Shown here: piece by piece, positions 17,195 through 55,827 of the stretch
How positions within the stretch are numbered: position 1 is the first letter of the stretch
Layout: every line of letters starts with the position of its first letter
Source: an uncultured Planctomycetia bacterium
GTDB lineage: Bacteria > Omnitrophota > Gorgyraeia > 2-02-FULL-51-18 > JAGOUK01
Direction of reading: 5' to 3'
Assembly (NCBI GenBank): GCA_964430735.1
Contig: CAYSFB010000002.1
Coordinates: forward strand, 222,027-286,026
DNA: 64,000 nt
Notes under the pieces: model-generated
Database searches by the model: none
Seen by the model: the letters and a program-made list of their open reading frames with translations, nothing else
What the model was told of the DNA's origin: nothing
Made by a program: the position numbers and the translations under genes

Positions 17195-17421
17195 TGACCT
17201 TGAACACCTCAAGGTTCCTGGAGCTTTGCGTCCCACCCTTACGGATGGTTTGCCTTTTCAGTCCCGTATTCGTCTTTTGAATGAACCGCTTTGCTTACGA
17301 ACCGGACGAATATCTGTTTGAAGTCTACCCTACGCGATACGAGATTTCAAGAGTCTACAGAAACTTTTTTTATATGTTATATGATAAATGTTTGTATAAA
17401 TGTCGATTAACACGATATCAA

Positions 17422-31968: not shown

Positions 31969-32112
31969 GTCCGAGGAGGCGTCCCCGCCGACGAGGACAA
32001 ATGGAGAAGGCGCGCCTCGTCTTAGACAGCGCGCCTTCGGCTATGCCCATTTCCGCACGCGAAGCGTGCAGGCGGCAGGATTTTTCCTGCCTCCGGACCG
32101 ATCGTATGCGGG

Positions 32113-34109: not shown

Positions 34110-34153
34110 AAAAAACAAAACCCCGCTCGGCTTGCGCCGGGCGGGGTTTTTTT
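34110..34153. terminator. Bidirectional Rho-independent terminator between convergent csp and the YD-repeat gene
   Basis: AAAAAACAAAA-CCCCGCTCGGC-ttgc-GCCGGGCGGGG-TTTTTTT. The GC-rich stem is flanked by A and T tracts. Confidence 0.7.
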
Positions 34154-34165
34154 AATTCCGGAAAC

Positions 34166-35539
34166 TTAGTTGGCCGTGTTGTTCTGGCCGGCGATCGAGA
34201 AGCTTTGGCCGACAGACTGGCTGCCCGAGAACTGGATGTTCTGCTGCGGCTGGCTGGACGTCTGTTGGACCTGGATCACGGCGTTGCGCTCCGTCACCCA
34301 CGACAAGTCGCCGCCGATCGGCGCCGAAAAAGATTGACCGAGAGTGATGGGCCCGAAGGATCCGCCCACAACGACGTGCGAGGCGCTGTCCATGAGAAGC
34401 GTCGCGTCCGGAGAGATGCCGATGTTCCCGCTGACGTAGAGCTTGAGGCCCTTCAGGTCCATCGTCCCCTTCGTGAGCTGCAGGTCGCCGGTCACGTAGA
34501 TGTCGTAGCCGTTGGGTTCGGATCCGACGGTGAGCGATCCCGAAACCTGCAGATTGAACTTGGAAAAATCCCAGGTCTTGGCCGAGCTGAAAACCACGTC
34601 GCCCTGAATGTTCAGGTACGCCGGGGCCAGGAGGTCTTTGAGGTCGTCGAGGATCTGAGTGGCGTCCCTGAAGCCGGCGCCGCTCAGCTCGGGGATGTCG
34701 ACCGGGACATACGCTCCTTCTTCCGCGGCATATGTGTGCGTGTATGTGACGTTTCCGGATGCGTTCAGATCATAGCTGACCGAATATTTACGGGTCACGG
34801 CACCGTCGACGACGGTCAGGTCGGCGGTCTTGGTGCGCAACTTGCCTGAGAGCTCGTACACGTCGTGCGTCTGGATGACGTCGCCGGTCAGGCGGTACGT
34901 GTACACATCCACCACGCGGCCGGACGCATCATTGATCACTTTTCCATCGGCGCCGGTGGTCCGGTAATTCCGCTCCTTGCGCGCCAGGGTGCCGTTCGTG
35001 TTGTAGGCGAATGTCTGGGAGTCCGTCATCCGCTGCACGATGCGGAACAAGTCGTAGGTCGTGTAAGTGGTGTTCTCGCTCTTCTTCCGCGATTTGGCGT
35101 CGTACTGGAAGGTCGAGGTGTAAGTCATGTGGGTCTTGCCTTTGGCGGGACGGCCGTTGGAGTCGTAGTAGAACGTGGTCCCCACGGCGTTCGTGAGAAT
35201 CCCGTTCCGGTCGTACCGCTTGGCGGTGGTGGTAGTCTGCGCGAGGCGGCCGTTGAACGTCCAGTAAAAGGGCTGATAGGTCATCACGACGGTCTGACCA
35301 AAACCCGACACCGTCAGGGTTTCGAGCTTGCCCGGCTGGAAAAGGTCGATGACGATGCCGCTCGTGAGCGAGTTCAGATTAATCTGAGATCCGACCGCGT
35401 TCAGCGGATTCAGGAGCGAGCTGTTCGAATTGTTGATCGTGATGGTGCCGGAAGAGGTCGGCGCGAGCGTGTCGATGGCGAGCGCGTTCCCGCCCATAAG
35501 AGAGAACGCCGTAAGAAGTGCCAAGATGCGCTGTTTCAT
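34166..35539 (-). CDS. Secreted YD/RHS-repeat-containing protein, ~457 aa, with a C-terminal beta-helix-like repeat region
   Basis: Start at MKQRILALLTAFSLMGGNALA after a GGAG RBS. YD-type repeats: FYYDSNGR, TFQYDAKSRK, YTYRLTGDV, YSVSYDLNASGNV. The C-terminus has V-x-G-x-L repeats. Confidence 0.55.
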   Translation of the reverse strand: MKQRILALLTAFSLMGGNALAIDTLAPTSSGTITINNSNSSLLNPLNAVGSQINLNSLTSGIVIDLFQPGKLETLTVSGFGQTVVMTYQPFYWTFNGRLAQTTTTAKRYDRNGILTNAVGTTFYYDSNGRPAKGKTHMTYTSTFQYDAKSRKKSENTTYTTYDLFRIVQRMTDSQTFAYNTNGTLARKERNYRTTGADGKVINDASGRVVDVYTYRLTGDVIQTHDVYELSGKLRTKTADLTVVDGAVTRKYSVSYDLNASGNVTYTHTYAAEEGAYVPVDIPELSGAGFRDATQILDDLKDLLAPAYLNIQGDVVFSSAKTWDFSKFNLQVSGSLTVGSEPNGYDIYVTGDLQLTKGTMDLKGLKLYVSGNIGISPDATLLMDSASHVVVGGSFGPITLGQSFSAPIGGDLSWVTERNAVIQVQQTSSQPQQNIQFSGSQSVGQSFSIAGQNNTAN

Positions 35540-35651
35540 GTTTGCTCCAATTTGGATGAATAGAAGAAGACGCAATTATACATGATAAATAAACATTTTT
35601 CTAGATCCAGCAACAGAGGGATCCAGCGCTGGAAAATGCGGTAGGACGGGA

Positions 35652-37100
35652 TTAAACGGAGAGGAGAGAGGACTGGCCGACCAGATAGAGGTCGACGCAG
35701 CGGGCGGCCTTGCGGCCTTCCTGGATGGCCCAGACGACCAGGGATTGGCCGCGAGTCATGTCGCCGGCGACAAAGACGCCGGGGACGGAAGTCATTTTGT
35801 TGGCGTCGGCCTTGACGTTGCCGCGCTCATCGAGCGCGACGCCGAGTTCTTCCAGCATGCCGTTCTTCACGGGTCCGAGGAAGCCCATCGCCAAGAGGAC
35901 CAGGTCGCATTCCAGCTCGAATTCGGAACCCGGAACTTCCTTCATCGCGGAGCGGCCGGTGGCCGGGTCCTTGGGTCCGAATTCGAGCTTTACGGCGTGG
36001 AGCTTCTTGAGCTTGCCGTTTTCGCCGGAGAACTTCTTGGTCGAGACAGAATAGAATTGTTCGACACCTTCCTCGTGGGAAGTCGACGTGCGCTTGATGA
36101 AGGCCCACTGGGGCCAGGGGTTGTCGGCCGCGCGTTCCTTGGGCGGTTCGGGCATGAGCTCGAACTGCTTCACGGAAACGGCGCCCTGACGGTTCGACGT
36201 ACCGAGGCAGTCGGAGCCGGTGTCGCCGCCGCCGAGAATGATGACCTTCTTCCCCTTCGCGGAGATCTGCTTGGTCGGGTCCTGCTTAAAGCCGCGGTTC
36301 GAAAGATTCTGCTGCGGAAGGAACTGCATCGCCTGGTAAATGCCTTCGAGTTCGCGGCCCGGGATCGGAAGATCGCGCGCCTGTTCGGCTCCGCCGCAAA
36401 GCACGACCGCGTCGTTCTGGCGGCGCAGATCCTGCGCGCTCATCGTGACGCCGATGTGGACGCCGGTCTTGAAGATCACGCCTTCGGCGCGCATCCGGTC
36501 CAGACGCCGTTCGACGACGGTCTTTTCCAGTTTGAAGTCGGGAATGCCGAGCGCCAGCAGGCCGCCGAGGACGGCGTTCTTTTCGTAAACGGTAACGGTG
36601 TGGCCGGCTTTGTTCAGCTGGTCGGCGCAGGCGAGGCCTGAGGGGCCGGAACCGACGACCGCGACCTTCTTGCCGGTGCGGTGCTTGGGCGGGTTGGGCT
36701 TGATCCAGCCCTGGCCGTACGCGTGTTCGACGATCGAGACTTCGATGTTCTTGATCGTGACGGCCGGCGCGTTGATGCCGAGCACGCAGGAGTTCTCGCA
36801 CGGAGCCGGACAAACGCGGCCGGTGAATTCGGGAAAATTATTGGTGCGGTGCAGGCGCTCGATCGCCTCTTCCCAGCGGTTGTTGAACACGAGGTCGTTC
36901 CAATCGGGAATCACGTTTCCGATCGGGCAGCCGGACATGCAGAACGGCACGCCGCAATCCATGCAGCGGGCTCCCTGCTTCTTCAACTCTTCTTCAGGCA
37001 GGAATTGCGTGAATTCGCGGTAATGCTTCACGCGCTCAAGCGGCTTCTCCTTGGAGAAGTCGACGCGGGTGAACTTCATGAACCCTTTGACGTCACCCAT
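35652..37100 (-). CDS. gltD: Glutamate synthase (NADPH) small subunit
   Basis: Fe-S Cys cluster CMDCGVPFCMSGCP...CPAPCENSC, and two dinucleotide-binding GxGxxG motifs (VAVVGSGPSGLACA, VIILGGGDTGSDC). Confidence 0.9.
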   Translation of the reverse strand: MGDVKGFMKFTRVDFSKEKPLERVKHYREFTQFLPEEELKKQGARCMDCGVPFCMSGCPIGNVIPDWNDLVFNNRWEEAIERLHRTNNFPEFTGRVCPAPCENSCVLGINAPAVTIKNIEVSIVEHAYGQGWIKPNPPKHRTGKKVAVVGSGPSGLACADQLNKAGHTVTVYEKNAVLGGLLALGIPDFKLEKTVVERRLDRMRAEGVIFKTGVHIGVTMSAQDLRRQNDAVVLCGGAEQARDLPIPGRELEGIYQAMQFLPQQNLSNRGFKQDPTKQISAKGKKVIILGGGDTGSDCLGTSNRQGAVSVKQFELMPEPPKERAADNPWPQWAFIKRTSTSHEEGVEQFYSVSTKKFSGENGKLKKLHAVKLEFGPKDPATGRSAMKEVPGSEFELECDLVLLAMGFLGPVKNGMLEELGVALDERGNVKADANKMTSVPGVFVAGDMTRGQSLVVWAIQEGRKAARCVDLYLVGQSSLLSV

Positions 37101-40100
37101 GGACGGGCTCCTTCGCTGACTGGCCGGCAGGCGCGTGGGCGGCCTTGGCGGCCTCTTCGAGCACGCGCTTGTAGTCGGTCGGATAAACCTTGGTGAATTC
37201 CTTGGCGGCGGCGGGCCAGCGGCTCAGGATCCCCTGCGCGACCGTGCTGCCGGTGAGCTGGGCGTGCTTTTCGATCAGGCCTTTGAGCTTGTTCAGGTCC
37301 GCCGCTTCGACGACGGGAACGAGCTCGACCATGCCCTTGTTGCAGCGCTTCTCAAAAGACTTGTCCTTGTCCCAGATGTACGCGATGCCGCCCGACATGC
37401 CGGCCGCGAAGTTGCGGCCCGTGGGACCGATGACGACAACGGTGCCGCCGGTCATGTATTCGCAGCCGTGGTCGCCCACGCCCTCGACGACCGTTTCGAC
37501 GCCCGAGTTGCGGACCGCGAAGCGTTCGCCGGCAAGGCCGCGCGCGAACAACTCGCCCTGAATGCCGCCGTAAAGAACGACGTTGCCGACGATCATGTTG
37601 TTTTCGGGGATGTACCGGGCGTTGCGGTCCGGGGCGACGACGATGCGTCCGCCGGAAAGGCCCTTGCCCACGTAATCGTTGGCGTCACCTTCGAGCTTGA
37701 GCGTCACGCCGCGCGACAAAAACGCGCCGAAGCTCTGACCGGCCGAACCGCGGAACTGGATCTCGATCGTGCCTTCCGGCAGGCCCTTCATCCCGTATTT
37801 CTTGGCGATGTCGGAGCTTAGGATCGTGCCGACGGTGCGGTTCGTGTTCTGAATCTTAAATTCGGCTTTGACCGGCTTCTGATGCTCGATCGCATCCTTG
37901 CAGGCTTCGAGCAGCTGCATGTCGAGCGCCTTGTCGAGCCCATGGTCCTGGCGGCCGGTGTGGCGGATCGCGACGGTCGCAGGGACGTCGGGGCGGTGCA
38001 GGATCTTGGAAAGGTCGAGGTGCTTGGCCTTCCAATGATCGACGTCGTCGCGCTGCTCGAGCCAGTCGACGCGGCCGACCAGGTCTTCAAATTTGCGGAC
38101 GCCGAGCTCGGCCATGATCTCGCGGACTTCTTCGGCGAGGTACATGAAGTAATTGACGACGTGTTCGGGTTTGCCGGTGAACTTCTTGCGGAGTTCCGGG
38201 TCCTGGGTCGCGATACCGACCGAGCAGGTGTTCAAATGGCATTTGCGGAGCAGGATGCAGCCCGACACGACCAGTGCCGAGGTCGAAAAGCCGAATTCGT
38301 CCGCGCCGAGCATGGCGGCGACCACAATGTCGCGGCCGGTCTTGAGCTGGCCGTCGGTCTGCACGCGGATGCGGCCGCGCAGGTCGTTGAGCACGAGCAC
38401 CTGCTGGGCTTCGGCGATGCCGAGCTCCATCGGAAGGCCCGCGTGCTTGATCGACGTCTGGGGCGAAGCACCCGTGCCACCTTCGAAGCCCGAGATGAGT
38501 ACGTGGTCGGACTTGCCCTTGGACACGCCCGCGGCGATGGTGCCGACGCCGATCTCGGACACGAGCTTCACCGACACGTCGGCGTGGCGGTTGGAATTCT
38601 TGAGGTCGTGGATGAGCTGCGCCAGATCTTCGATCGAATAAATGTCATGGTGCGGCGGGGGCGAAATGAGGCCGACACCCGGAGTCGTGAGACGGGTTCC
38701 GGCGATTTCTTTGGAGACCTTGTGGCCGGGCAGCTGACCGCCTTCGCCGGGCTTGGCGCCCTGCGCCATCTTGATCTGCAGCTGGTCGGCGTTGACGAGG
38801 TATTCGATCGTCACGCCGAAACGGCCTTGCGCGACCTGCTTGATGCGGCTGCGGCGCCAGTCTCCGTTGGCGTCTTTTTGATAACGCGCCGGATCTTCGC
38901 CGCCCTCGCCCGTGTTCGAGAAGCCGCCGAGGCGGTTCATCGCGATCGCGAGCGTTTCGTGCATTTCTTTGGAGATGGAGCCGTAGGACATGGCGCCCGT
39001 GGCGAAGCGCTTCACGATCTCCTTGGCCGGCTCGACCTGGTCGATGGCGATCGGCTCGCCCTTCTTGAAACGCAGGAGGCCGCGGATCGTCGCGATGTTC
39101 TGGGAATAGTTGTTCAGGACGGCGGTGTACTTTTTGAACGTCTTGTATTCGCCCGAGCGCACGGCGTGCTGGAGCAGCGCGATCGACTCGGGGTTGTACA
39201 TGTGGTGTTCGCCGTCGCGGCGCCAATGGTAGCTGCCGCCTTCTTCGAGTTCGGTCGGTCCGCCCTGCGTGTGCGGGTAGGCGCGTTCGTGCTTCAGGAG
39301 CGCTTCGCGCGCGACTTCCTCGATGCCGATGCCGCCGATGCGGGTCGGGGTCGCGGTAAAGTATTTTTCGATGAGCTTTTCGCTCAATCCCACGGCTTCG
39401 AAGATCTGCGCGCCGCAATAGGATTGGATGGTCGAGATGCCCATCTTGGACGTGATCTTGAAGAGACCTTTGCGCGCGGCCTTGACGAAGTTTTTCTTGG
39501 CGTGGGCGTAGTCGAGTTCCTTGCCGTAGTGGCCGACCTTGATCTCGTGCTCGATCGTCTCGAGCGCGAGGTAGGGGTTCACGGCGTTGGCGCCGTAACC
39601 GATGAGCGTCGCGAAATGGTGCATTTCGCGCGCTTCGCCGGTCTCGACGACGAGCGACACGCGGGTGCGGGTCCCCTTGCGGATGAAGTGGTGGTGCAGG
39701 CCGGCGGTCGCCAGGAGCGACGGGATCGCGGCGTGGCGCGCGTCGACTCCGCGGTCGGACAGGATGAGGATGGTCGCGCCGCGGCGTACGGCGTCGTCCG
39801 CGTCCTTAAAAAGCTTTTCCATCGCCGGCTCGAGGCCCTTGGTCCCCTGGTCGGCGCGGAACACGGTCTCGAGGGTCGCGGACTTGAGGCCCGGCGCTTC
39901 GAATTCGCGGATTTGCTCGAGCTCTTCGCTCGTCACGACCGGCAGCGGCAGGCGCAGGCGCCGCGCGTGCTCGGCCGTTTCGTCGAGCGTGTTCTGCTCG
40001 GCGCCGAGCATGACGTCCGAACCCATGATGATTTCTTCGCGGATCGCGTCGACGGGCGGATTCGTGACCTGGGCAAAAAGTTGCTTGAAGTAGTTGAACA

Positions 40101-41646
40101 GCGGCTGCGGCAGCTTCGAGAGCACCGCCAGCGGCGTGTCGTGGCCCATGGAACCGGTGGCTTCTTCGCCCTCGGCCATGGGCTTGAGGATGATCTTCAG
40201 GTCCTCGAGCGTGTAGCCAAACGCCATCTGCTTGGCGGACAGGTCGGCGGGCGCCGTGTGGCGCAGGTGCTTGGGCTTCGGAAGGTTCTGGAGGTCGGTG
40301 ATGTTTTTCTCGACCCACTGCTTGTAGGGCTTGCGGGTCGCAACCTCGTGCTTGATCTCGGCGTCTTCGACGATGCGGCCTTCATGCGTGTCGACGAGGA
40401 ACATCTTGCCCGGCTGCAGACGGCCGCGCGACAGGACGCGCGTCGGTTCGATGGGCAGCACGCCCGATTCGGACGCCATGACGACGAGGTCGTCGTCGGT
40501 CACGAGCCAGCGCGAGGGTCTGAGGCCGTTGCGGTCCAGGATGGCGCCGATGTAGCGGCCGTCCGTGAACGCGATCGCCGCGGGACCGTCCCACGGCTCC
40601 ATGAGGCAGGAATGGTATTCGTAAAACGCCTTCTTGTCGGCGTCCATCGACTCGTGTCCGCTCCAGGCTTCGGGCACCATCATCATGACGGCGTGCGGCA
40701 GCGAACGGCCCGAAAGGACGAGCAGCTCCAGCGCGTTGTCGAAGATCGCCGAGTCGGAACCGGCGAGGTTGAGCGTCGGGATGACTTTTTTGAGATCGTC
40801 GCCGAACTTGTCGCTGACGAACTGCTTTTCGCGGGCGCGCATCCAGTTGATGTTGCCGCGGAGCGTGTTGATTTCGCCGTTGTGCGCGATCATCCGGTAG
40901 GGATGCGCGAGCGACCAGCTCGGGAAGGTGTTCGTGCTGTAACGCGAGTGGACGAGCGCGATCGCCGAGACCATGTCCTCGTCGGACAGGTCCGGGAAGA
41001 AGCGGTCGACCTGCGGCGAGGTCAACTGCCCCTTGTAAATGAGCGTCCGGGCCGAAAGGGAGCATATATAGAAGTAGTCCCGCTGGCCGAGATTGGACTC
41101 GAGCACCTTGAGCTCGACGCGGCGGCGGATGACGTAGAGCTTGCGCTCGAATTCGAGGTCGTCACGGACGTCTTTGCCGCGGCCGATGAAGATCTGGCGG
41201 AATTCGGGTTCGACGGAGTGGGCCACATAACCGATCTGCTTGGAATCGTGCGGCACTTCGCGCCAGCCGAGGAAGCGCTGGCCTTCTTCGTGGATGACTT
41301 CTTCGAGCCACTCTTCGATGAGGTTCTTCTCGTCCTGGCGGGTCGGCAGGAACACAAGGCCGACGCCGTACTGGCCTTCTTTGGGAAGTTCGATGTGAAG
41401 CTTGGCGGCTTCGCGGCGGAGGAACTTGTCGGGCATCTGGATGAGGATGCCGGCGCCGTCGCCGGTGTTCGGATCGCAGCCGCAGGCGCCGCGATGCTCG
41501 AGATTTTCGAGGATCTGCAGACCGGACCGGACGATGCTGTGCGACTTCTTGCCCTTCAAATGCGCGACAAAGCCGACGCCGCAAGCGTCGTGCTCGTAGT
41601 AGGGATCGTAAAGGCCTTGTTTGGGGGGAAGTCCTGCGCCGGTCAT
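37093..41646 (-). CDS. gltB: Glutamate synthase large subunit
   Basis: Start at MTGAGLPPKQGLYDPYYEHDACGVGF (Ntn amidotransferase Cys). The track ORF adds 17 upstream codons. FMN and 3Fe-4S domain motifs are present. It overlaps gltD by 8 nt. Confidence 0.9.
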   Translation of the reverse strand: MTGAGLPPKQGLYDPYYEHDACGVGFVAHLKGKKSHSIVRSGLQILENLEHRGACGCDPNTGDGAGILIQMPDKFLRREAAKLHIELPKEGQYGVGLVFLPTRQDEKNLIEEWLEEVIHEEGQRFLGWREVPHDSKQIGYVAHSVEPEFRQIFIGRGKDVRDDLEFERKLYVIRRRVELKVLESNLGQRDYFYICSLSARTLIYKGQLTSPQVDRFFPDLSDEDMVSAIALVHSRYSTNTFPSWSLAHPYRMIAHNGEINTLRGNINWMRAREKQFVSDKFGDDLKKVIPTLNLAGSDSAIFDNALELLVLSGRSLPHAVMMMVPEAWSGHESMDADKKAFYEYHSCLMEPWDGPAAIAFTDGRYIGAILDRNGLRPSRWLVTDDDLVVMASESGVLPIEPTRVLSRGRLQPGKMFLVDTHEGRIVEDAEIKHEVATRKPYKQWVEKNITDLQNLPKPKHLRHTAPADLSAKQMAFGYTLEDLKIILKPMAEGEEATGSMGHDTPLAVLSKLPQPLFNYFKQLFAQVTNPPVDAIREEIIMGSDVMLGAEQNTLDETAEHARRLRLPLPVVTSEELEQIREFEAPGLKSATLETVFRADQGTKGLEPAMEKLFKDADDAVRRGATILILSDRGVDARHAAIPSLLATAGLHHHFIRKGTRTRVSLVVETGEAREMHHFATLIGYGANAVNPYLALETIEHEIKVGHYGKELDYAHAKKNFVKAARKGLFKITSKMGISTIQSYCGAQIFEAVGLSEKLIEKYFTATPTRIGGIGIEEVAREALLKHERAYPHTQGGPTELEEGGSYHWRRDGEHHMYNPESIALLQHAVRSGEYKTFKKYTAVLNNYSQNIATIRGLLRFKKGEPIAIDQVEPAKEIVKRFATGAMSYGSISKEMHETLAIAMNRLGGFSNTGEGGEDPARYQKDANGDWRRSRIKQVAQGRFGVTIEYLVNADQLQIKMAQGAKPGEGGQLPGHKVSKEIAGTRLTTPGVGLISPPPHHDIYSIEDLAQLIHDLKNSNRHADVSVKLVSEIGVGTIAAGVSKGKSDHVLISGFEGGTGASPQTSIKHAGLPMELGIAEAQQVLVLNDLRGRIRVQTDGQLKTGRDIVVAAMLGADEFGFSTSALVVSGCILLRKCHLNTCSVGIATQDPELRKKFTGKPEHVVNYFMYLAEEVREIMAELGVRKFEDLVGRVDWLEQRDDVDHWKAKHLDLSKILHRPDVPATVAIRHTGRQDHGLDKALDMQLLEACKDAIEHQKPVKAEFKIQNTNRTVGTILSSDIAKKYGMKGLPEGTIEIQFRGSAGQSFGAFLSRGVTLKLEGDANDYVGKGLSGGRIVVAPDRNARYIPENNMIVGNVVLYGGIQGELFARGLAGERFAVRNSGVETVVEGVGDHGCEYMTGGTVVVIGPTGRNFAAGMSGGIAYIWDKDKSFEKRCNKGMVELVPVVEAADLNKLKGLIEKHAQLTGSTVAQGILSRWPAAAKEFTKVYPTDYKRVLEEAAKAAHAPAGQSAKEPVHG

Positions 41647-41756
41647 AGATAGTTTAAGTCTGTCATTACTCCTGAAAAAGCAGGCATGAAAAACCAATTT
41701 GATATGAGCGGGTTATTCTACACATCCCCGAGCCGCCGACGCAAGCAAAAAGCTCG

Positions 41757-41938
41757 TTAAAACCCCTGAACGATGCCCAGCAGCTCTTCGAGATCGACCG
41801 GCTTCATCAGAATGGACGAAGCCCCGAGCTGGCGGAACCGGTCGTTCATCCGGTCGTCCCGGTAAGCCGTCATCAGGATGTACCGCGCATCCGGCCGGAG
41901 CGCCGCCGCGCGTTCCAAAAAGGCGTCCACATGTGGTT
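41757..41938 (-). pseudogene. 3' remnant of a response-regulator receiver-domain gene, truncated at the boundary of the low-GC patch
   Basis: It translates to ...AALRPDARYILMTAYRDDRMNDRFRQLGASSILMKPVDLEELLGIVQGF*, the alpha3-beta4-alpha4-beta5-alpha5 half of a REC domain ending KP...eL. There is no N-terminal half. Upstream sequence from ~41940 abruptly turns AT-rich. Confidence 0.6.
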
Positions 41939-41977
41939 GTAGTAGATATGATTCTTTTTAAAAATTGAGATCTGGGG

Positions 41978-42427
41978 CTAGGATGATGGCTGGGTCGCGA
42001 GCCTTTGACGGAGAGAATCGGCCTTAGATTTGAGAGCCTTTTGGCGATCTTCGTTCATTGTGGCAATCGAGGCGTATTCGTAATTGTCAGCGGCGTTATT
42101 TAGATCGCCCATCTCTTCGTAGGTTTGGGCGATGTAATCGAGAGCAATGGCCTGCGCAGGTCTGATTAGTGCATATTTTTTAAGGGCTTCTGTGTAAGCG
42201 CTAATCGCCATTTCATATTCACCAGTCTTTCGATAAGCATCACCCTGATGTTTTAACTCCAGGAAGCGGTCGGCTTGTTCATAATTATTTCTAAAATGAC
42301 TGGTCTTTTGATTTAAGCCGGTCGGTAGATTGGATTTTTTGTCGTTAGTCTGACTTCCGCTTGTGTTGCACCCAGCAAGAGCGCATAACTGAATCAGAAG
42401 TAGTCCGTGTATCAACCGATTTTTCAT
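41978..42427 (-). CDS. TPR-repeat lipoprotein, 149 aa
   Basis: Lipobox LCALAGC. TPR-like helices (YRKTGEYEMAISAYTEALKKYA...). Low-GC codon usage. Confidence 0.6.
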   Translation of the reverse strand: MKNRLIHGLLLIQLCALAGCNTSGSQTNDKKSNLPTGLNQKTSHFRNNYEQADRFLELKHQGDAYRKTGEYEMAISAYTEALKKYALIRPAQAIALDYIAQTYEEMGDLNNAADNYEYASIATMNEDRQKALKSKADSLRQRLATQPSS

Positions 42428-42440
42428 ACTGCCCTCTTGA

Positions 42441-42650
42441 AACCGGACACCCTCCCCTCCTAGCTAAAAAGGGAGGGATTACTGGGGAAAGTACCCGGTT
42501 TATACTTGCGGGCCATGAGGAACTCTTTTCATTATTTATATCACAGTTCATGGGCCGCGAAGGCGGGAGCTGTCACAAAATACTGTTAAGACTAGGGCCT
42601 GACTGCTGACCGCTCCCTTTTTGGGTTACTGGGGAGGGCGCCTAGTTTAC
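42441..42650. repeat. ~210-bp direct repeat, copy 1, immediately upstream of TPR lipoprotein gene 1
   Basis: About 96% identical to 43311..43520. It contains the hairpin CCCTCCC-N14-GGGAGGG and an identical 24-codon ORF (MRNSFHYLYHSSWAAKAGAVTKYC) on the plus strand. Confidence 0.8.
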
Positions 42651-42755
42651 AGTATCCATTAATTATCAAATAATTTTCAATACTTAACTTTAGCTACAAT
42701 CTATTACTTGTGGTACTTGAGTCTTTGGCTACAAGATGTGGAATCAAGCCCAATT

Positions 42756-43253
42756 TTAAATTTGGTTTGACTCTTGAGCCGATACAGAAGATCTAGATTG
42801 GCTGATGGCTTTGATTTTAAGGGCAGAAATTTTTGATTCGTACTCGGGGCGGGCGTAATCTTTTGGAGGGGAGGACTCTAAATGTTCAATAGCCTTTCCA
42901 TAATCACCAATGGCTTCATAGGAGGCCGCCAATCCTCGATGCGCTTCCCAGGCAACTCCAGGAAAAGCAAGTAAGGTTTTATAGTGCTCAATTGCCTCGA
43001 ACCATCTTTCTTGCTGCTCAAGCTCCCTGCCCTTCCGAAGTGGGGCATTCTCTTCATGAGCGGCTTGGACTAACTGAGTGAGATTGGTGGCCTGCTTTTC
43101 CGACGCGCCGCCCACGATTAAATGACTTCCTTCACCTGTGCGAGCCACATTATTTCCAGAACCAACTGACTCGCGCATATTTTCTTCTGGCAGATGCAAT
43201 GTGCACCCCGACAAAATCGACACTAAAATTATGAACGTAAGTATTTGTCGCAT
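42756..43253 (-). CDS. TPR-like lipoprotein, 165 aa
   Basis: Lipobox ILSGC. TPR-like helices (WFEAIEHYKTLLAF, AASYEAIGDYGKAIEHL). Low-GC codon usage. Confidence 0.55.
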   Translation of the reverse strand: MRQILTFIILVSILSGCTLHLPEENMRESVGSGNNVARTGEGSHLIVGGASEKQATNLTQLVQAAHEENAPLRKGRELEQQERWFEAIEHYKTLLAFPGVAWEAHRGLAASYEAIGDYGKAIEHLESSPPKDYARPEYESKISALKIKAISQSRSSVSAQESNQI

Positions 43254-43310
43254 AGCTCATTGCACCTTATCGGGATCAAGAATATACCGTTTTGATTCAC
43301 TGTCGTAAGA

Positions 43311-43520
43311 AACGGGACGCCCTCCCCTTCTAGCTAAAAAGGGAGGGATTGCTGGGGAAAGTACCCGGTTTATACTTGCTGGCCATGAGGAACTCTTTTC
43401 ATTATTTATATCACAGTTCATGGGCCGCGAAGGCGGGAGCTGTCACAAAATACTGTTAAGACTAGGGCCTGACTGCTGACCGCTCCCTTTTTGGGTTACT
43501 GGGGAGGGCGTCTGGTTTAC
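43311..43520. repeat. ~210-bp direct repeat, copy 2, immediately upstream of TPR lipoprotein gene 2 and 4 nt downstream of the TolB-like gene
   Basis: Near-identical to 42441..42650. Confidence 0.8.
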
Positions 43521-43523
43521 GGC

Positions 43524-44558
43524 TTACTCGCTCCAGTGCGGGGTCTCGTCAGTAGCCCAGCCGCGGCCAGGATCTTTAGCGTGGCTCGGGAGCTTCTTGG
43601 CGGGAGTAATTTGGACTTCTTCGCCGGTTTCAAGGTTCAGGGCATAGAGCTCAGCCCCTGCATAGGGATAGATATGTCGATAGGATACATAGCAAATCCA
43701 TTTGCCATCCGGAGAAAAAACGGCATCCTGATCACTCCAGGGACCAAAAGTGACTTGTCTAGCGTCGCCTGATTCAAAATCATAGATGAATATTTTTGAC
43801 TGCTCATGTATACGCTCGCCTTGTTGGTTTAGGGGTGAGGCGTAGGCGAGTTTCTTGCCGTCCGGAGAGAATGCACCTCCATGAGCTGCTCTAGCAATAA
43901 GCCTGTTGTCAGTGCCATTAGATTTAATAGTCCAAACGCTGAACACTCCATATTCTTTCTCGCCCATCATTGCATATGACAATAGTCCTCTCGCATCGTT
44001 GAAGTTGAGCTGTGTAATTTGCCTGCTGCCGGGCATTGGTGTTAGGTTTGATATTTTAGTTAAATTATTGTCTTGTAAGTAATAGATGTTATCGCTTCCG
44101 CCGGCGGGTTCTGACGCATCAAAACGCACGACATACGCACCGCCGCGGGTCAAGATTGCTCTACTCCCATCAAGATAGTAATTTGCCTTCTCCGGCTGTC
44201 TCAAATCAACAACACCGAACTTGCGTCCGGATCTCACCAATACTTCATTGCCCCCTGAAGTCAAACGCGGTTGTTCGTACCCCCCAAATGCTCCGCCGAG
44301 GAAAGATGGGACCCCTTGTGGCATTGGGTTTTCAGAATCACTCTTGGATAAAACCTTCTTGATGGCACCTTTCTCGAAGAGCCACACTTCCCCCCTGCCC
44401 CCATCTCGATTAGAGATAAAAACAATTTTGCCAGAGAGCTCTGCCGCTCTCGAATCCACAGCTTCTTTGGGCAATCCTTTGATCTCGGACTTATCGCTCT
44501 TGGCACATCCCGCTGTAAAAAAAATGGCGACTGCCAAAACTACTCTTAAATAAATCAT
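43524..44558 (-). CDS. TolB-like beta-propeller lipoprotein (PD40/WD40-like repeats)
   Basis: Start at MIYLRVVLAVAIFFTAGC (lipobox), 4 nt after the stop of the giant gene. PD40-like repeats FSPDGKKLAYAS and FSPDGKWICYVS. Confidence 0.65.
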   Translation of the reverse strand: MIYLRVVLAVAIFFTAGCAKSDKSEIKGLPKEAVDSRAAELSGKIVFISNRDGGRGEVWLFEKGAIKKVLSKSDSENPMPQGVPSFLGGAFGGYEQPRLTSGGNEVLVRSGRKFGVVDLRQPEKANYYLDGSRAILTRGGAYVVRFDASEPAGGSDNIYYLQDNNLTKISNLTPMPGSRQITQLNFNDARGLLSYAMMGEKEYGVFSVWTIKSNGTDNRLIARAAHGGAFSPDGKKLAYASPLNQQGERIHEQSKIFIYDFESGDARQVTFGPWSDQDAVFSPDGKWICYVSYRHIYPYAGAELYALNLETGEEVQITPAKKLPSHAKDPGRGWATDETPHWSE

Positions 44559-44562
44559 ATGG

Positions 44563-47500
44563 TTAAGATCTCTCAGTTGACTCGATCCATTTATCAATAG
44601 CATGCTTGAGATCCACAGGACTTAACAACCCATCTTCTGCATAGGCGCTTAAGTCCACCTGAAGACTATCTCTGATTATATCAGTGACAACCTCACTACA
44701 GAATTTACGTAGAGCAGGGTCTCCGAATGCCTTGGTTCTTTCCGATAGGAGGTACGCCCACCAGTACGACTGACCTATGATGGGCTTTGAGGGGTCAGCA
44801 CTCACTAGGGCGCCGGGATAGTCATAGTTAAGAATGGTGTTGGGATGCATTGTTGATTCGTCTATATACGCTTTAGACAGGTGGGATTGTATTGTTCTTG
44901 CACTTTCAATATCGATCGGCAACTCCTGCACCTCAATATCTAAATACTTCCCGTGCCAGTCATCAAATGGCATCACAACAAGATCGGTCTGCAAATCAAC
45001 TCCCATTGACTGATTGACCTGTCTGCCCGTGTTCTGAACCTCAATGATATATGGCTTTCCGTCCGACGCTGCGAATAGCATCGCCGAATGGTTGTAACCC
45101 ACTGCGTCCCGCCCCGGGATCGTCGACCCTTGTCTGATCACAAGACCTGTTGCGTCTGCTCCAACCACATGAATAACGGCCACTTTGCCTTGGGCAGCAA
45201 GAGCCAATGCTTTTTGCACATGATCATTCTTATGCTGCTTGATCTCTGATTCGGTTCTGGCCCCGTATCGGTTCCAGATCTGATTGAATATCCTCTCGTA
45301 TGATTCGGATGCAGAGAGGCCGGCGTCTTTGATTTTTTGATTAACCACGGCTAATTTTGCTGCGGCGATTTCATTTGATGCGCTCAGGTTAAGCTTGATG
45401 CGGTCGCCAAGCTTTTCCCATTCGAGCCGAAGGCCGTCCAGGTCGCTTGCTTTGATATCGGCCTGTTCGATGATTACTTCTTCCGGAGCCACCGCCCTGA
45501 ATAGCGTGTTCTGCTTGGTGATATCGCCATCCGTGATCTTGATGTGAATATCATTGGATTCGATGTCCCAATCAAGCTCGTCTTGAGGCGATTCGCTGAC
45601 AATGCTTCCGTCGGATGACCAGGCTAGATCCGAGCCTGGCGTGAAGCGGACTTCTTGGGCTGCGCCGCCCGGGACTTGGGGTGGATGCTGCATCAGAATG
45701 TGGACGATAATTCCATTTGAGACTTGATAAGTTCTCCGCGTGCCGTCCGGATCCAGATAGACCGCCTCGCCCTCCCAAAGCCGCACTTGCCCGTCAGGAT
45801 CCAGCGTCATGACGCCGCTCAAGAGACGATTGGGGCCACTCAACTCCACGATCTTATCGGTCGCGAGATCGACCAGAATATACTCGTTCGCCGCTGAGTC
45901 CGGATTGATCGAGACTTTGCGGTAGTTCCGGCCTCCGATCTCAACGCGCGTGGCTGGATCGGTCAGCTGGTAATTGATGTAGCTTTTAATGGAGTCATAC
46001 GTCTCAAGAATCCTCTCCATCAATTGCTGGCGGAGAATTGTCGTCGCGTGTTGTTCGAGAACTTCCGCAAGACCCCCTTGGGTCTTAAGTACCAGGTCTG
46101 TGAAGAGCCTAATGCCGCTCAAGCCTTGAAAAGTTTCAGCGAACCGGATCGTGAATTGGGTTACGGAATCTTTAAGACCGTCGAACACCCTTGCAAAAAC
46201 ATTCCGCTGGTCGCCGGACCCGTTTTTTACAAGACCGCTGACGGCACCCAAAAATAGCTCGGAGCCGAGCGCGCTCTCGAAGGGATCAAGGCCTGCCGTC
46301 TCACCGACCTTGTCGAGACTGATTTGAACGAGCTTGGTTGCGATGGTCCGTAATCCGTCTTCGACCGATGCGATGGTGCCGCGGATGAGTCCTGCAGGAT
46401 CGAAGATTCCTCCGAAAACGCCTCCTGCGACTGAACCAACAATGCTCGTGATCCGAGGATCGAGTCCAATGGAGCTGCCGAGCTTGTTGATGCCATAGGC
46501 TGTGAGCTCCTGCGCCAAGAACGGCCGGATCGTCGTGAATATCTCTCCGATCTTCCCCTGCCATGCTCCGCCAGCGAGGGCTCCGGCTGTGACTGAGAGA
46601 ATGTCAGTCAAAGAGGAATCCATACCTGAGGCTGATAAGAGCGTCTTGGCTCCGGCCTGGACTGCACCCCTCAATCCCGCCTGCAGAAAAAGACTCGAGC
46701 TGAACCCCGTAGGCGAGATTCCGCCTAGGAAGCCTCCGGTCAAAAACCCTGTGAGGACGCTCGAGATGCCCGGGTTTACTCCAAGGGCATCCAGTCCCCT
46801 CTGCAGCCCGTAGTTCAACCCCACCGTGATGGCCGACTTAAACAATGACCCTGCGGTCAGACTATTCAAGCTCAGGCCAAAGAACCCGCCTTGAGTGGCC
46901 GGGGCGAAGAGACTGGTCAGCCCTCCTCCGAACAGATGCGTCCCTGCGAACTTAAGGCCCGTAAAAGCCGCCTTAGCGAGAGTCCCGATACCCTGGATCA
47001 CCCCGCCCAGGATCTGCCCCAGAGAGATGATGATGTTTCCGATGATAGCCCCGATCGAGGCGATGATGCCTCCGATGGCGGCAAGGATGCCTCCGATGGC
47101 GGCGGTGATGCTCGTGATGGCTCCGATGATGGCGGGGATGAGGAAGAAAAAGGCGCCTTTGATCTCCTTGGACTCTCGGACAGAGATCTTCTGGTTGGCC
47201 AAGGCCGGCGGCGCATGGGCATCCGGAAGCAGAGAGGTTCCTTGCCAGATCTTGAGGAATTCTTCTTTGGAGAGGACTTTGACTTCCCCGTTATCCAGGA
47301 AGGTGACTTCCGACTGCGTGGCTTTGACGAGATTCACATAGTGCTTGCCGTCGACGTGGAGGACGGGTCTGGCGGAGTCGTTGTTGAGCGAGAAGACCCT
47401 AAGGTCCTCATAAGTCAGCTTGAAGCCCGAAGCGGGCGCGCCGTAGAGAGCGGCGGTGCGGCTCATTGCGAAGAGACTCACGAGCATCTCTTCGCCGGGC

Positions 47501-50500
47501 TTAAGGAACGGGTGGATCTGACCGGTGAGGATGTCGACGAGGATCATCCGGGAAGCCAGCTCCGTGCGGTCGGACTCGGTAAAGGTCTGGCCGCGTGACT
47601 TTAAGAGCTCGATCAAGGGATCGATGGCGCTTTCTGCGAAGTGAAGGGATTGGGATTCCAGAAAGGCCTTGAGCTTGGCGACTTCCGAGGCGGTGAGGCT
47701 CACCGCTTCGGCCGACGTGAGGCCAAGCGATGTTAGAACGGCTTGGCGCTGAGAAGCGTCCAGCAGCGCGTCGAGGCGGCCGAAGATCGACTGAGTGATC
47801 GCGGCCTTGCGTGACGCGCGGCTCGTGCGCTCCGAAGACTGTGTGAGAGAAGTCCTCAGCGCCGAAGGTGCAGCAGCCTGCGTTTGAGCAGCAGCCAGCT
47901 CCGACGCGGACGGATCCCGACCCAGGATCTCGCGGTACACGTGGATCGTCACAGCCTTCTTCTCCTCGGTCCGGATCGAAACCTGGGATTTGGCGAACTC
48001 CGCGTCGAGATGCGCGAAGGCGCGGTCAAAGTCGGATTCGATCTGAAGCTTTTTTTGATCCAGCGCGGCAGAAAGCGCCGCCAGCTGACGGGACCTTTCC
48101 TCTTCGATCGCGGCCTTGGCCTCATCGATTTTGCGGATCACGTCACGGTAAGCGTCGAGCGTGGCGGACTTTTGCTTCTTTCCCGCGGAACCTTTGGCCT
48201 TTTGGCCTTCGAGCTCATTCAGGAGATTCTGATAGTGATTGCGCTGGTTGTTGAGATCCGCCTGCTGGAGATCGACCTGCGCCATAAAGTCCGACGTGAT
48301 GAGGGCCGCCTCCAGCGCCTGATCGGTGAGCGCTTCGAACTTTTGTCGCTCCGCCTGGATCTTCGCGTCAAAAAGCGCCTCGTCCAGCGCCCGGCGCTGG
48401 CCTTCGTTGCGGATCTCGACGAGCGCGTCCGACGCGTCGTAGACGTACTGCGTGAGCGTGTAGCCCTTTAAGTCATACACCGCGTCGATGCGGTCTGTGC
48501 CGGGAATATACGTCAGCACCGTCTTGTCCGCACGCGCGAGCGAAACCATCCGTCCGGCCGCGTCGTATGTCGAGACGATGGGCGTTTCGGCCTTGAGGGC
48601 CGAGCCGACCTGGGACTTCACCGCCTGCCAATTGACCTGACGGAAATTGAGATCGGTGTCATACACCAGCTTCGAACGGTCCAAGGGCGCTGCCCCTGAG
48701 GCGGCGGCATGCGTCTTCGTGAGCGTGAGAGCGGTCGAAGCTTTTTCCGCGCGGAGCTCGAATCCCGACGTGCCCAGGAGCGCTGACCGGCCGGCGGCGG
48801 CTTCGGCGAAGAACACACCCTCGAGCGACTTGGGATGGTTCAGGCGAACGGTCATCCTGTCGGGGCGCGCAGCGCCCTGCGGATAAACATACACTTCCGT
48901 GAAGTCGCCTTTGGCGAAAAATTCCACCGTGTACGGCTTGCCTGCCTCGTAGCGCATTCCGGTGGCGAACCAGCCGCTGCCGCTGTCGGCGCGGACCGTG
49001 CCGTCGGCGTCGAACTGAATGGCGATGCGGTGACTTGAGCCGTTGACAACGGTGAGGTCGTAACCAACAGTGAGACGCGATTGGGCTTCGACCTGGACGT
49101 CCGCCTTGCGCGCGAGCGCGTCAAAGAATGCGAGCTCATCCGCCGAATCTTCGGTAAGCGCCCGAACTCCGGAAGGCGCCTGACCCGGGGCGACGTCGAA
49201 CCGGGCCGTCAATGCCTGCTCGTACTCGTAACGCTTCATGACAGTCAAACGCGATGTCGGGATCACGCCCAGCATTTTGCGGACGCCCGGTTCGCCGATC
49301 ACGGTTTTTTCACCGTTCTTGCGCGCCACGTAATAAAACGGAAGGTCGTGCGAAGCGACGATCGTGCCGCCGCGTTCCATGTACTCGCGGGGGATATTCC
49401 GGGTCGAAATCGACAGCGGGCTCGAAGGATCGTAAACCGTCTCGGGCATCGCGCTCTGCAGCATCATGACCGCGGTCCCCTCTCCGCGCGTCGTGAAGAA
49501 TTCCTTGAGGTCCTGCGCCGAAAGGACCTTGAAGCCCTTCGCCGTGAGAATCTGCTTCATCATCAGAGCGAATCCGCCGCCCGTGCCGCCGTAGTATTCG
49601 GGATCGAAGTAAACGTACCGCTCGGACTCCTCCGCGTGCGAGGCCAGCGCGGCATAATCCGCCAAACGCGAAGGGTCGTTGTAGTAATTGGGGTCGTTTG
49701 CGCCGCCCCAGAGATAAACGAATCCCGAATCCGGATGCGCGGGAGAAAAATTCTTCTTCCATCCCGCCGCACCTCCGTCCGCCGACGCAAAAACCTCGAG
49801 CTCCGGCTCCTCCTCGAACTGGTACGCGGATCTCCATCCCGCGCCCGGAGCGTCCGCAAAATCGTCATAAGCGATCGAACGACCGGCGGCGTCGTAATAA
49901 CGGATGTCGCTCTTCACGTTCGAAAGAATCACGGCGCCTTCGCCGACGCGCTTCAGATCCTCGATGGCGCTGCCGGACATGCCGCCCTTGCGTCCGATCA
50001 TGGCGAAGCTGTCGCGATAACCGATCCCGCGGATCTTGGCGCTGCCCAGACTCTCGATCGCCTTCATAGCGCGCTCCGTCAGGTTCTTCGAACCTTCGTC
50101 CGCGACGGCCAGGGCCACGATATCCCCCGCCGGAACGCCTTCGATGAAGTCCGCCATCCGTTCGGCGTCCTGCGGACCGACGATGTAGGGATCGAACCAG
50201 TCTTTTTTGACCACTTTGCCGGACGCGTCCAGATGGACCAGCGCCCAGCCGCGCGTGAGGGAACGGTTCTGGGTCGACGTCTTTTCGATGTCAAAAGGGA
50301 TCAGGTCCTCGCCGTTCACCGTGATGGAAGCGTTCCATCCGTCCAGATAACCGTACGAGGCGACGCGCACGTCTGACGGGAGCCCGAGTCCCGCAACAGG
50401 CACGCGCTCGCTGTGGACGGAGCGGGTGTGCGTGATATTCCCCTGCGCGTCTTCGCGGAATCCGAAGTCAGTCGTGACACCCCTCGCGGCGTCCGTGATC

Positions 50501-55572: not shown

Positions 55573-55827
55573 CCTGCCCCCAATCTTCCGGCCGCTGAAT
55601 CACAAGATGCGGCGCAGAGTGAGTCAAGGTTTACCGGCAGAAGTGAAGAGATTCAAGGGGGCGATTTTTCAAAAGTATTAGAAAGAGCTTGTTAAATCGG
55701 TTCAGGTCAATTTTTGAAGAAAAGCTTAGAAAGGTGCTTGTGCGGAGATGGCGGGATGCTATCGCTGCTTAATCGGGCTTGATTAAGCTAAGAGAAATCA
55801 CGAATTACTCGGTGAGATATTAAAAGT

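Follow-up and report, generated by a model that had tools for sequence, protein, structure and literature searches.

REPINs are inverted doublets of REP sequences with a spacer between them, and they form hairpins in single-stranded DNA or in mRNA (PMC3116915). The Correia elements of Neisseria (CREE/NEMIS) carry promoters at their ends and are bound and cleaved by RNase III (PMC2649163). Like bacterial MITEs, they are miniature elements with terminal inverted repeats that insert into intergenic regions (PMC2649163, PMC2229807, PMC10969869). Integron attC sites are imperfect palindromes arranged as direct repeats on either side of single small genes; members of an array may resemble one another closely, an integrase need not be near, and integrase-less clusters of at least two sites (CALIN) are common (PMC4889954). 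Finally, Rhs and polymorphic-toxin loci combine a large RHS-repeat protein with orphan modules, which are small genes of different base composition. The handles at Rhs loci are fragments of rhs coding sequence, homologous to the 3' core-coding region of the main rhs gene. The sequence analyzed here, referred to as the window, is a 64-kb stretch of DNA from an uncultured member of the Omnitrophota and contains a pair of foldback repeats that can be compared with each of these systems. The anatomy of the repeated element is that of a MITE/REPIN-type miniature element, and a REP/MITE-type element, known here from two copies within 64 kb, is the reading that fits this anatomy best. The copying of a MITE/REPIN-like element into two operon spacers is also the best reading of the locus as a whole and is put forward tentatively.

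Copy A of the repeat occupies positions 42439-42652 and copy B positions 43309-43522, with 206 of 214 positions identical by direct alignment count. A repeat search of the window pairs 42439-42650 with 43309-43520 (212 nt, 97% identity), in agreement with the initial annotation, which described two near-identical elements of ~210 bp at about 96% identity. No second long family of this type is returned from the window, in which the 214-bp repeat has only these two copies, and a 25-mer from the repeat core occurs exactly twice where no occurrence is expected. The copies share one orientation, are spaced 870 bp apart and occupy equivalent positions in an operon. Independent Logan assemblies recover the outer portions of both copies at 100% identity, which excludes an assembly artefact. 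The Logan contigs end at 42540 and 43481, ~30 nt into the stretch common to both copies, as expected of k=31 unitigs; the repeat pair thus explains why short-read assemblies break exactly at the element.

Each copy is bounded by an imperfect terminal inverted repeat of 36 nt at 72% complementarity, which extends to 38 nt. The arms are located at 42439-42476 and, as the inverted counterpart, 42613-42650 in copy A, and at 43309-43346 and 43483-43520 in copy B. The boundaries of the repeat match those of the foldback structure to within 2 nt: similarity between the copies runs from 42439 to 42652 in copy A and ends no more than 2 nt from the ends of the inverted repeat, which identifies a discrete foldback element rather than an arbitrary duplication. 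The flanking sequences on both sides are unrelated between the copies. All four arms share the motif AAAC..CCCTCCCC-N8-AAAAAGGGAG, which has four matches in the window compared with 0.01 expected. Each arm is also a CCCTCCC(C)/GGGAG(GG) palindrome in its own right, and the two arms of a copy are mutually inverted, as in the hairpin doublets of REPINs. The CCCTCCC...GGGAGGG hairpin that had been noted earlier in each element is found at 42450-42477, local to the left arm of copy A, and at 43320-43347, compared with 0.02 expected. An invariant core of 130 nt (42511-42640) is 100% identical in both copies and is associated with an inner inverted repeat (42508-42518 and 42548-42558) around an AT-rich loop. 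The ends of the element read TGAAAC/GTTTACA, or GTAAAC/GTTTCAA on the other strand. Copy A is flanked by CCCTCTT and AGTATCC and copy B by GTCGTAA and GGCTTAC, and the flanks of either copy contain no direct target-site duplication in any register. The whole element folds into one long hairpin on either strand, with an energy below that of shuffled sequences (z = -2.6 to -3.9) that is attributable to the terminal inverted repeat.

The element resembles REPINs in that the whole unit can form a hairpin in single-stranded DNA or mRNA, is extragenic and non-coding, and lacks a target-site duplication. It differs from them in size (214 bp with a 136-nt spacer, compared with ~70-110 bp between REPs) and in number, with two copies known from the 64-kb window where REPINs reach hundreds per genome. 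REPs, singlets included, are over-represented in extragenic space at tens to hundreds of copies. REPINs are furthermore accompanied by a single-copy RAYT gene flanked by the same REPs, whereas the window contains no RAYT, and the element has no sequence similarity to any described REP. At 214 bp, non-coding and bounded by inverted repeats, it has the size (below ~500 bp) and structure of a MITE; MITEs also occur as multiple copies dispersed over unrelated contexts and have a parent IS or transposase with matching ends. The element shares with Correia elements the prospect that a long hairpin, if co-transcribed as seems probable here, can bring in promoters or RNase III sites with an effect on neighboring genes. 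Correia elements are shorter (~100-155 bp), number hundreds of copies and are unrelated in sequence to the present two. They also have a TA target duplication, which is missing from the element.

Under the favored MITE/REPIN-like reading, the element would have been copied into two spacers of a once-compact operon, encoding a giant protein, a PD40 protein and TPR proteins, on a 14-kb island. The missing target-site duplication makes a copying mode of the HUH/Y1 type (REP/RAYT, IS200/IS605), or a recombinational one, preferable to classic DDE cut-and-paste. The same feature counts against a mobile element, as does the result that no transposase, RAYT, integrase or tyrosine recombinase is found among the scanned ORFs of the window; a tblastn search of the window with an Omnitrophota Y1 transposase also finds nothing. 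A second point against mobility is that only two copies are known, within the 64-kb window and ~90 kb of other loci. Neither low-stringency blastn nor a four-arm covariance model with filters off detects further copies or single arms in the window or in the ~90 kb of other loci, which come mostly from sister and other Omnitrophota. The last point against is that no homologue is obtained from any of the larger collections. In the 185,579 species genomes of GTDB, the arm motif CCCTCCCC-N8-AAAAAGGGAG yields 28 single chance matches in unrelated taxa, none extending past the motif. A search of JGI metagenome contigs with a 21-mer from the core gives three chance matches of 21-23 nt and no homologue, scans of IMG/VR give 0 matches, and blastn against PLSDB plasmids and INPHARED phages gives none. 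If the reading is true, this would be the first miniature foldback repeat to be described from the Omnitrophota, which are known almost exclusively from metagenomes. The finding is genuine but of a fairly ordinary kind: the repeats resemble a small DNA element that is mobile or has been copied, and not a known RNA or a toxin-cassette handle, and nothing here overturns current understanding.

The neighboring genes are all encoded on the minus strand, in the order 3669-aa RHS/C39 protein, PD40 lipoprotein, copy B, TPR lipoprotein 2 (TPR2), copy A and TPR lipoprotein 1 (TPR1). The first gene (44563-55572) encodes a protein with RHS/YD repeats, an ILEI domain, a C39-peptidase-like domain and a Gly-rich transmembrane region, and the element lies within a large surface-protein operon, of a type under discussion as predation or attachment machinery. 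The second gene (43524-44603) encodes a PD40/TolB-like beta-propeller lipoprotein, for which a 344-aa form that would start at 44558 is the cluster representative in NCBI and Logan. TPR2 (42756-43253, 165 aa, lipobox LSGC) is bracketed by both copies, and TPR1 (41978-42427, 149 aa, lipobox LAGC) lies downstream of copy A; both products have TPR Pfam matches in addition to the lipobox. Copy B begins 1-3 nt past the PD40 stop codon (43524-43526), with 55 nt between its other end and the TPR2 ATG (43253), and copy A lies in the spacer between the TPR2 stop (42756) and the TPR1 ATG (42427), ending 11 nt before the latter. Read on the minus strand, the two elements therefore do stand directly upstream of two different TPR lipoprotein genes, as originally stated. 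The initial annotation added that these genes share architecture but not sequence; similarity between the two proteins is limited to 26% identity over 43 residues. An old tandem duplication of the element together with its gene does not fit the disparity between this value and the 96-97% identity of the copies. Nor is the pair explained by a single TPR gene split by insertion, since each TPR protein has a lipoprotein signal peptide to itself, and the two align to one and the same N-terminal TPR stretch in a 315-aa homologue.

Within the operon in the window, long junctions (270 and 328 nt) occur only where a copy of the element is present, and the junction from the giant gene to the PD40 gene is tight. 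A homologous giant/PD40/TPR operon is present in a distant Omnitrophota metagenome-assembled genome (L041), where the genes abut or overlap with no spacer element; the giant proteins of the two operons share 28% identity over 700 residues (E = 1e-54). The tightness of the L041 operon and the restriction of long junctions in the window to those with an element argue for element insertion. An IS200-like Y1 transposase gene (Pfam PF01797, E = 1.2e-14) adjoins the homologous operon in L041, which offers weak, circumstantial support for mobility. With a position between same-strand genes and no recognizable terminator, the element is probably co-transcribed and would form a long, imperfectly paired hairpin shortly before each TPR lipoprotein gene. 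Such a hairpin could influence mRNA processing or stability and translation, as Correia and REP/BIME elements do. The two copies are also 214-bp direct repeats around TPR2 and are therefore potential substrates for homologous recombination, which could lead to loss or amplification of TPR2 and to gene conversion between the copies. If the reading is true, TPR2 is thereby marked as open to loss or amplification through recombination of the repeats.

The distribution of differences between the copies adds a requirement to the favored reading. The eight differences (42444, 42449, 42459, 42481, 42510, 42641, 42644 and 42651; four A>G, two C>T, one C>G and one G>T) are concentrated at the ends of the element, where the edges are ~9% diverged, and randomly placed differences would give an identical core of 130 nt with P = 0.004. 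Two simple recent insertions do not predict end-clustered differences around an invariant core, and the MITE/REPIN-like reading needs either gene conversion, which would explain the perfectly identical core, or selection on the core. A diversity-generating retroelement with a TR/VR pair was also considered and rejected: the differences show no restriction to adenines, each copy lies between genes rather than inside a coding region, and the scanned ORFs of the window include no reverse transcriptase.

Selection also enters a different and rather doubtful explanation, in which the element is a functional cis-acting intercistronic RNA module, such as an RNase III/E processing site, an mRNA-stabilizing site or a translational control element, with near-identity kept by selection and gene conversion rather than by mobility. 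The contrast between core and edges agrees with this explanation, as does the placement of both copies in sense orientation between co-directional genes, immediately 5' of lipoprotein genes of the same class. In addition, the differences at 42449, 42459 and 42641 fall within helices predicted for the sense RNA and keep the pairing as G.U versus G-C or A-U, and the 3' end of the element can pair with either the 5' end or an internal repeat (I1 versus I2), which allows alternative folds. The G.U argument depends on three sites only, however, and an attempt to deduce the RNA strand from counts of G.U versus A.C was rejected because the arm hairpins are symmetric by construction, leaving only two or three informative sites. 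The distances to the start codons are unequal (11 versus 55 nt), TPR1 and TPR2 each have their own Shine-Dalgarno sequence outside the element, the local fold differs between copy A and copy B, the homologous L041 operon manages without such a spacer, and any MITE within an operon would look alike. The initial annotation had proposed a small structured RNA and suggested an Rfam scan. No Rfam family matches the element at the gathering threshold, and the sole overlapping match at E<=10 is a eukaryotic snoRNA model with 17.4 bits compared with a gathering score of 85, which is treated as noise. This result counts against an RNA module.

A duplicated promoter and leader, through which the small lipoprotein genes would be expressed independently of the 11-kb giant gene, is an unlikely explanation. 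Inspection by eye identifies an extended -10-like sequence, TGATATAAA, on the gene strand of the invariant core, ~100 nt upstream of the start codon for copy A and ~150 nt for copy B, and Correia-type elements are known to create promoters (PMC2649163). The sequence has no -35 element at proper spacing, however, and a scan with the sigma-70 consensus finds no minus-strand promoter within the element and four promoter-like sites in the region compared with 4.0 expected from shuffles, a result to be read with the caution that a promoter consensus is not established for Omnitrophota.

The element has no convincing coding potential. An identical 24-codon ORF on the opposite strand had been reported for each copy, and residues 1-23 are indeed identical (MNCDINNEKSSSWPASINRVLSP), but codon 24 differs between the copies (V versus A). 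The frame lies on the minus strand, which is the strand of the genes and not the one opposite to them, and it is not closed, continuing for 68 and 54 codons where the flanks are unrelated. It lacks a Shine-Dalgarno sequence, and its ends differ between the copies. A search for spurious gene calls on other copies, using the 57-aa plus-frame translation of the element, finds no called protein in a set of 5.8 billion protein sequences. An upstream ORF coupled to TPR1 (GTG...TGA overlapping the ATG) was dismissed because it is present in copy A only, copy B having GCG in place of GTG.

Direct repeats around exactly one small gene also recall a cassette boundary or recombination site, in which recombination of an incoming with a resident copy, attC-like or homologous, would have brought in an 870-bp unit (element plus TPR2) and left direct repeats behind. 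The imperfect palindrome with AAC...GTT at its ends and the common occurrence of CALIN arrays agree with such a site, which nevertheless seems quite improbable. Typical attC sites measure 57-141 bp, well below the 214 bp observed. Their core sites are R'' RYYYAAC and R' GTTRRRY, which the ends of the element match in the AAC and GTT triplets only, and the architecture does not fit either: attC sites have R and L boxes set apart by an unpaired central spacer, with extrahelical bases, but in the element no such spacer interrupts the helix, which shows single mismatches instead. The element is located within an operon that starts with an 11-kb gene. Integron arrays carry one site after every cassette ORF, but the interval after the last gene, TPR1 (41931-41977), holds no copy or remnant of the element. 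Tyrosine recombinases are missing from the scanned ORFs of the window. An integron was rejected on the misfit of the attC features and the lack of an integrase in the same ORFs. Low probability is also assigned to the broader proposal that the element is a dedicated module of Omnitrophota giant-protein operons rather than selfish DNA. It would then be either an intercistronic RNA switch or processing signal of a type not described before, or a recombination site of a new kind. As such it would delimit exchangeable small-lipoprotein cassettes downstream of the giant surface protein, so that the cell could vary its accessory lipoproteins or tune them separately.

The initial annotation had further suggested recombination handles as at the orphan modules of Rhs loci, that is, homologous sequences for swapping orphan toxin/immunity modules. 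The similarity to such loci is that the upstream gene carries RHS repeats and that GC3 falls to 0.43-0.47 toward the 3' end of the giant gene and in the three downstream genes, compared with ~0.8 in the flanking genes. The element, however, is not a fragment of rhs coding sequence and has no similarity to the giant gene (44563-55572) or to anything else in the window. The C-terminal 400 residues of the giant protein give no toxin-domain match in Pfam at a meaningful E-value and no PDB match. Because PD40 and TPR genes also follow the homologous giant protein in the distant L041 operon, they are conserved operon partners and not obvious orphan toxin/immunity modules. This explanation is very improbable and is already contradicted by these results.

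The elements and all of the operon genes are located on an island of 14,082 bp (41752-55833). Two sister genomes lack the island and have in its place a spacer of ~73 nt between the RF-1 and gltB genes. At the gltB-side edge, the island carries a 57-aa C-terminal fragment of a response-regulator receiver domain (41757-41930, minus strand, 63% GC). The island is a mosaic, in which genes of low GC adjoin a truncated response-regulator gene of high GC, and this speaks for the cassette explanation. The comparison with the sister genomes cleanly delimits this 14-kb island and the large RHS/C39 protein gene within it.

The element is a real, discrete and previously undescribed repeat of a familiar kind, present as copy A (42439-42652) and copy B (43309-43522). 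A repeat search of the 64-kb window groups 42439-42650 and 43309-43520 into a 212-nt family with 97% identity, the sole long repeat of its kind there, and pairwise alignment concurs, with 206 of 214 positions identical between the copies. A 25-mer from the core, the invariant inner stretch, occurs exactly twice in the window (0 expected). The outer parts of both copies are recovered at 100% identity in independent Logan assemblies from four SRA runs, whose contigs stop at 42540 and 43481, ~30 nt inside the sequence common to both copies. Such breaks are the behaviour expected of k=31 unitigs at a two-copy repeat, so the duplication is not an assembly artefact. The pair of ~210-bp, ~96% identical segments described in the initial annotation is therefore genuine and far beyond chance.

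All genes around the repeats are on the minus strand. The first is that of a 3669-aa giant protein (44563-55572) with RHS repeats, an ILEI domain and a weak Peptidase_C39 match; across its C-terminal 400 residues neither a Pfam hit with a meaningful E-value nor a PDB sequence match was obtained. It is followed by a PD40/TolB-like lipoprotein gene (43524-44603), for which a 344-aa form with a putative start at 44558 is recorded in NCBI and Logan. In the direction of transcription, copy B begins 1-3 nt past the PD40 stop and is separated by 55 nt from TPR lipoprotein 2 (TPR2; 165 aa, 42756-43253), after which an AT-rich spacer of ~105 nt leads to copy A, 11 nt from TPR lipoprotein 1 (TPR1; 149 aa, 41978-42427). 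Downstream lie a 57-aa response-regulator fragment (41757-41930) comprising the C-terminal part of a receiver domain, gltB (37093-41697) and gltD (35652-37100). As first reported, the two TPR proteins are unlike in sequence (26% identity over only 43 residues). Each carries a separate lipoprotein signal peptide, and the N-terminal TPR region of a 315-aa homologue in a distant Omnitrophota genome is where both of them align, which excludes them as halves of one split gene.

An imperfect terminal inverted repeat delimits each copy (42440-42475 and 42613-42648 in copy A); it is 36 nt long, has 72% complementarity and can be lengthened by 1-2 pairs. The four arms, i.e. the inverted-repeat segments of the two copies, align as AAAC..G.C.CCCTCCCC-N8-AAAAAGGGAG with 28 of 47 columns invariant, and the motif CCCTCCCC-N8-AAAAAGGGAG has four matches in the window where 0.01 are expected. 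The CCCTCCC...GGGAGGG hairpin noted earlier in each element is present, every arm being itself a short palindrome (CCCTCCC/GGGAGGG or CTCCC/GGGAG). Between the arms, an 11-nt inner inverted repeat (42508-42518/42548-42558) encloses an AT-rich loop. The 5' end of the element also recurs internally, so that the 3' end can pair with either of two partners (I1 and I2). On both strands the entire unit is predicted to fold into a single long hairpin (z = -2.6 to -3.9). Similarity between the copies runs from 42439 to 42652 and gives way to unrelated flanks at most 2 nt from where the inverted repeat ends; this coincidence marks the repeated unit as a structural entity in its own right rather than an arbitrary part of a larger duplication. 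Short additional inverted repeats of differing sequence lie just outside the copies, ATACTG/CAGTAT at copy A (42427-42432/42650-42655) and GTAAG/CTTAC at copy B (43304-43308/43523-43527). They lengthen the predicted hairpin in both contexts, and could be due to chance or hint at insertion into palindromic targets.

This anatomy fits the definition of a REPIN, two inverted REP palindromes with a spacer that form a hairpin in single-stranded DNA or mRNA (PMC3116915). It likewise matches Correia elements, intergenic MITEs that are transcribed along with their neighbours and can provide promoters as well as RNase III sites (PMC2649163; MITEs are reviewed in PMC2229807 and PMC10969869). The reading with the best support, though still tentative, is a miniature foldback element of the MITE/REPIN type that occupies two spacers in an operon whose genes are otherwise closely packed. 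No target-site duplication was found in any register at either copy, a lack more in keeping with copying of the HUH/Y1 type or by recombination than with DDE transposition. Confidence in the MITE/REPIN reading is held low by three points that count against a simple mobile element: the known copies number only two, which are neighbours with a shared orientation; neither a mobilising enzyme nor extra copies are within reach; and the differences between the copies are clustered.

The second point reflects several searches. Neither low-stringency blastn nor a four-arm covariance model with filters off detected another copy or an isolated arm, either within the window or across ~90 kb from other loci, most of them from sister and other Omnitrophota genomes, and no integrase, transposase or RAYT was found among the ORFs scanned across the window. 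Plasmid and phage collections gave no match to the element, IMG/VR gave none to three element patterns, and a core 21-mer had only chance matches of 21-23 nt in JGI metagenomes. Among GTDB species representatives the arm motif returned 28 single unrelated hits, none longer than the motif, against a rough chance expectation of ~17. The only genome with two of these is the Turneriellaceae MAG JBNLDQ01 (L007 2049-2080 and L021 2592-2622), where one ~31-nt hairpin, CCACCCTCCCTTTTTTTGGGCGGGGGGAGGG, is present on two contigs. It resembles one element arm (CTCCC-T run-GGG...GGGGAGGG) and may be either a small REP-like repeat in JBNLDQ01 or a chance product of the pattern searched for.

The third point concerns eight differences, at 42444, 42449, 42459, 42481, 42510, 42641, 42644 and 42651, which leave a 130-nt core wholly identical (P = 0.004 for a run this long under random placement of eight differences). 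Such clustering is not what two simple recent insertions would give; it suggests gene conversion between the adjacent direct repeats or constraint acting on the core. Constraint would suit a selected intercistronic RNA module, a somewhat unlikely explanation that is compatible with a MITE origin. Three differences lie within predicted helices and retain pairing in the sense-strand RNA (G.U versus G-C or A-U), but these are too few to carry weight, and the arm hairpins, symmetric by construction, are uninformative on strand. The small structured RNA proposed at the outset was sought in Rfam, where no family matches the element. Regardless of where the element came from, a continuous operon transcript would include a long hairpin a short distance upstream of each TPR gene, and the 214-bp direct repeats on either side of TPR2 offer homologous recombination a substrate.

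The invariant core also holds an extended -10-like sequence, TGATATAAA, as a promoter-bearing leader might, but a consensus scan finds no promoter there and this explanation is unlikely. Coding capacity was considered as well. Of the 24-codon ORF described initially, 23 residues are identical between copies, but the frame extends 68 and 54 codons into the unrelated flanks and lies on the same (minus) strand as the genes, not the opposite one. No Shine-Dalgarno sequence was found for it, and a translated plus-frame stretch of the element matches no called protein among 5.8 billion sequences.

Comparison with other Omnitrophota bears on the recombination-based explanations. In a distant, lower-GC Omnitrophota MAG (L041, GCA_028710465.1; 7449-9483), a giant protein (at least 2479 aa, weakly matching C39) is homologous to that of the window (28% over 700 residues, E = 1e-54) and is followed by a PD40 protein (27% identical across 89% of the query) and the 315-aa TPR protein. 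These genes abut or overlap with no spacer; the giant-to-PD40 junction in the window is as tight, and its only long junctions are the two that hold the element. The giant/PD40/TPR order is repeated on a Logan contig (L042), and giant-to-PD40 in L040. PD40 and TPR proteins are thus regular partners of such giant proteins, and the recurrence suggests a functional module of giant C39-like, PD40 beta-propeller and TPR proteins tied to large Omnitrophota surface proteins. This argues against orphan Rhs immunity cassettes, and the Rhs-type recombination handle first suggested is very improbable. A cassette or recombination site of another type is also improbable, since attC features are lacking (the unit is 214 bp long, only AAC/GTT fit the core sites and there is no central spacer), no site follows TPR1 and no integrase was found among the scanned ORFs (for the CALIN definition, see PMC4889954). 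It is equally doubtful that the element is a dedicated RNA or recombination module delimiting lipoprotein cassettes in these operons. Directly after the L041 TPR gene is a 122-aa IS200-like Y1 transposase ORF (9491-9859; PF01797, E = 1.2e-14) with the HUH-like motif NHIH, which shows such genes in the phylum; its tie to the element is circumstantial. A ~115-125-bp stretch spanning the TPR-gene end and Y1-ORF start recurs ~380 bp downstream at the contig end, as either a tandem duplication or an assembly loop.

The setting of the repeats is itself of interest, being a 14-kb island of an uncultured Omnitrophota bacterium, with an operon for a large RHS/C39 protein. Named gltD homologues are all from Candidatus Omnitrophica/Omnitrophota. 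Two sister genomes (L043 from JGI and L044 from ENA; gltD 92% identical) are collinear with the window on both sides at 77-87% nucleotide identity. In them gltB comes directly after the RF-1-domain gene at a distance of about 150 nt, with only about 73 nt of spacer at the site of the block. The adjacency of these genes defines 41752-55833 (14,082 bp) as an island missing there, containing the giant gene, PD40, both repeats, both TPR genes and the response-regulator fragment. Base composition within it is contrasting, which makes the island a mosaic: the three small genes have GC3 of 0.43-0.47 versus ~0.8 in surrounding genes, giant-gene GC3 declines gradually across the final 800 codons (44563-47000), from ~0.76 (residues 2700-2900) to 0.47 (residues 3550-3650) with no sharp breakpoint, and the response-regulator fragment is host-like at 63% GC. 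The fragment matches receiver-domain positions 62-110 only, ends 6 nt before the island boundary and resembles what remains of a gene truncated in a replacement event beside the low-GC lipoprotein genes. A second indel relative to the sister genomes (34152-35652), between gltD and the cold-shock gene region, contains a 469-aa ORF without a significant Pfam hit (34166-35575). The equivalent position is empty in loci L043 and L045, holds a 213-aa ORF in L044 and L046 and a His_Phos_1 gene in L048 and L049, and is a variable hotspot.

Several other features were noted. One is a ~95-nt GC-rich motif without relation to the 214-bp element. It occupies intergenic positions just downstream of genes, at 63771-63868 (-) and 31976-32042 (-) in the window and at 13641-13738 (+) and 15652-15747 (+) in L043, following a deoxyhypusine-synthase-like gene in both genomes and also nadA in L043. 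It has no Rfam hit; RNAalifold predicts two hairpins, with compensatory changes in 9 of 27 pairs among the four copies, and the motif is a candidate lineage-specific element, either REP-like or a 3'-UTR RNA. At 17181-17264 (-) a c-di-GMP-I riboswitch (Rfam RF01051, 57.4 bits) lies upstream of an ORF on the minus strand (16495-17094) without a Pfam family, and a PilZ-domain protein is encoded at 23941-25890.
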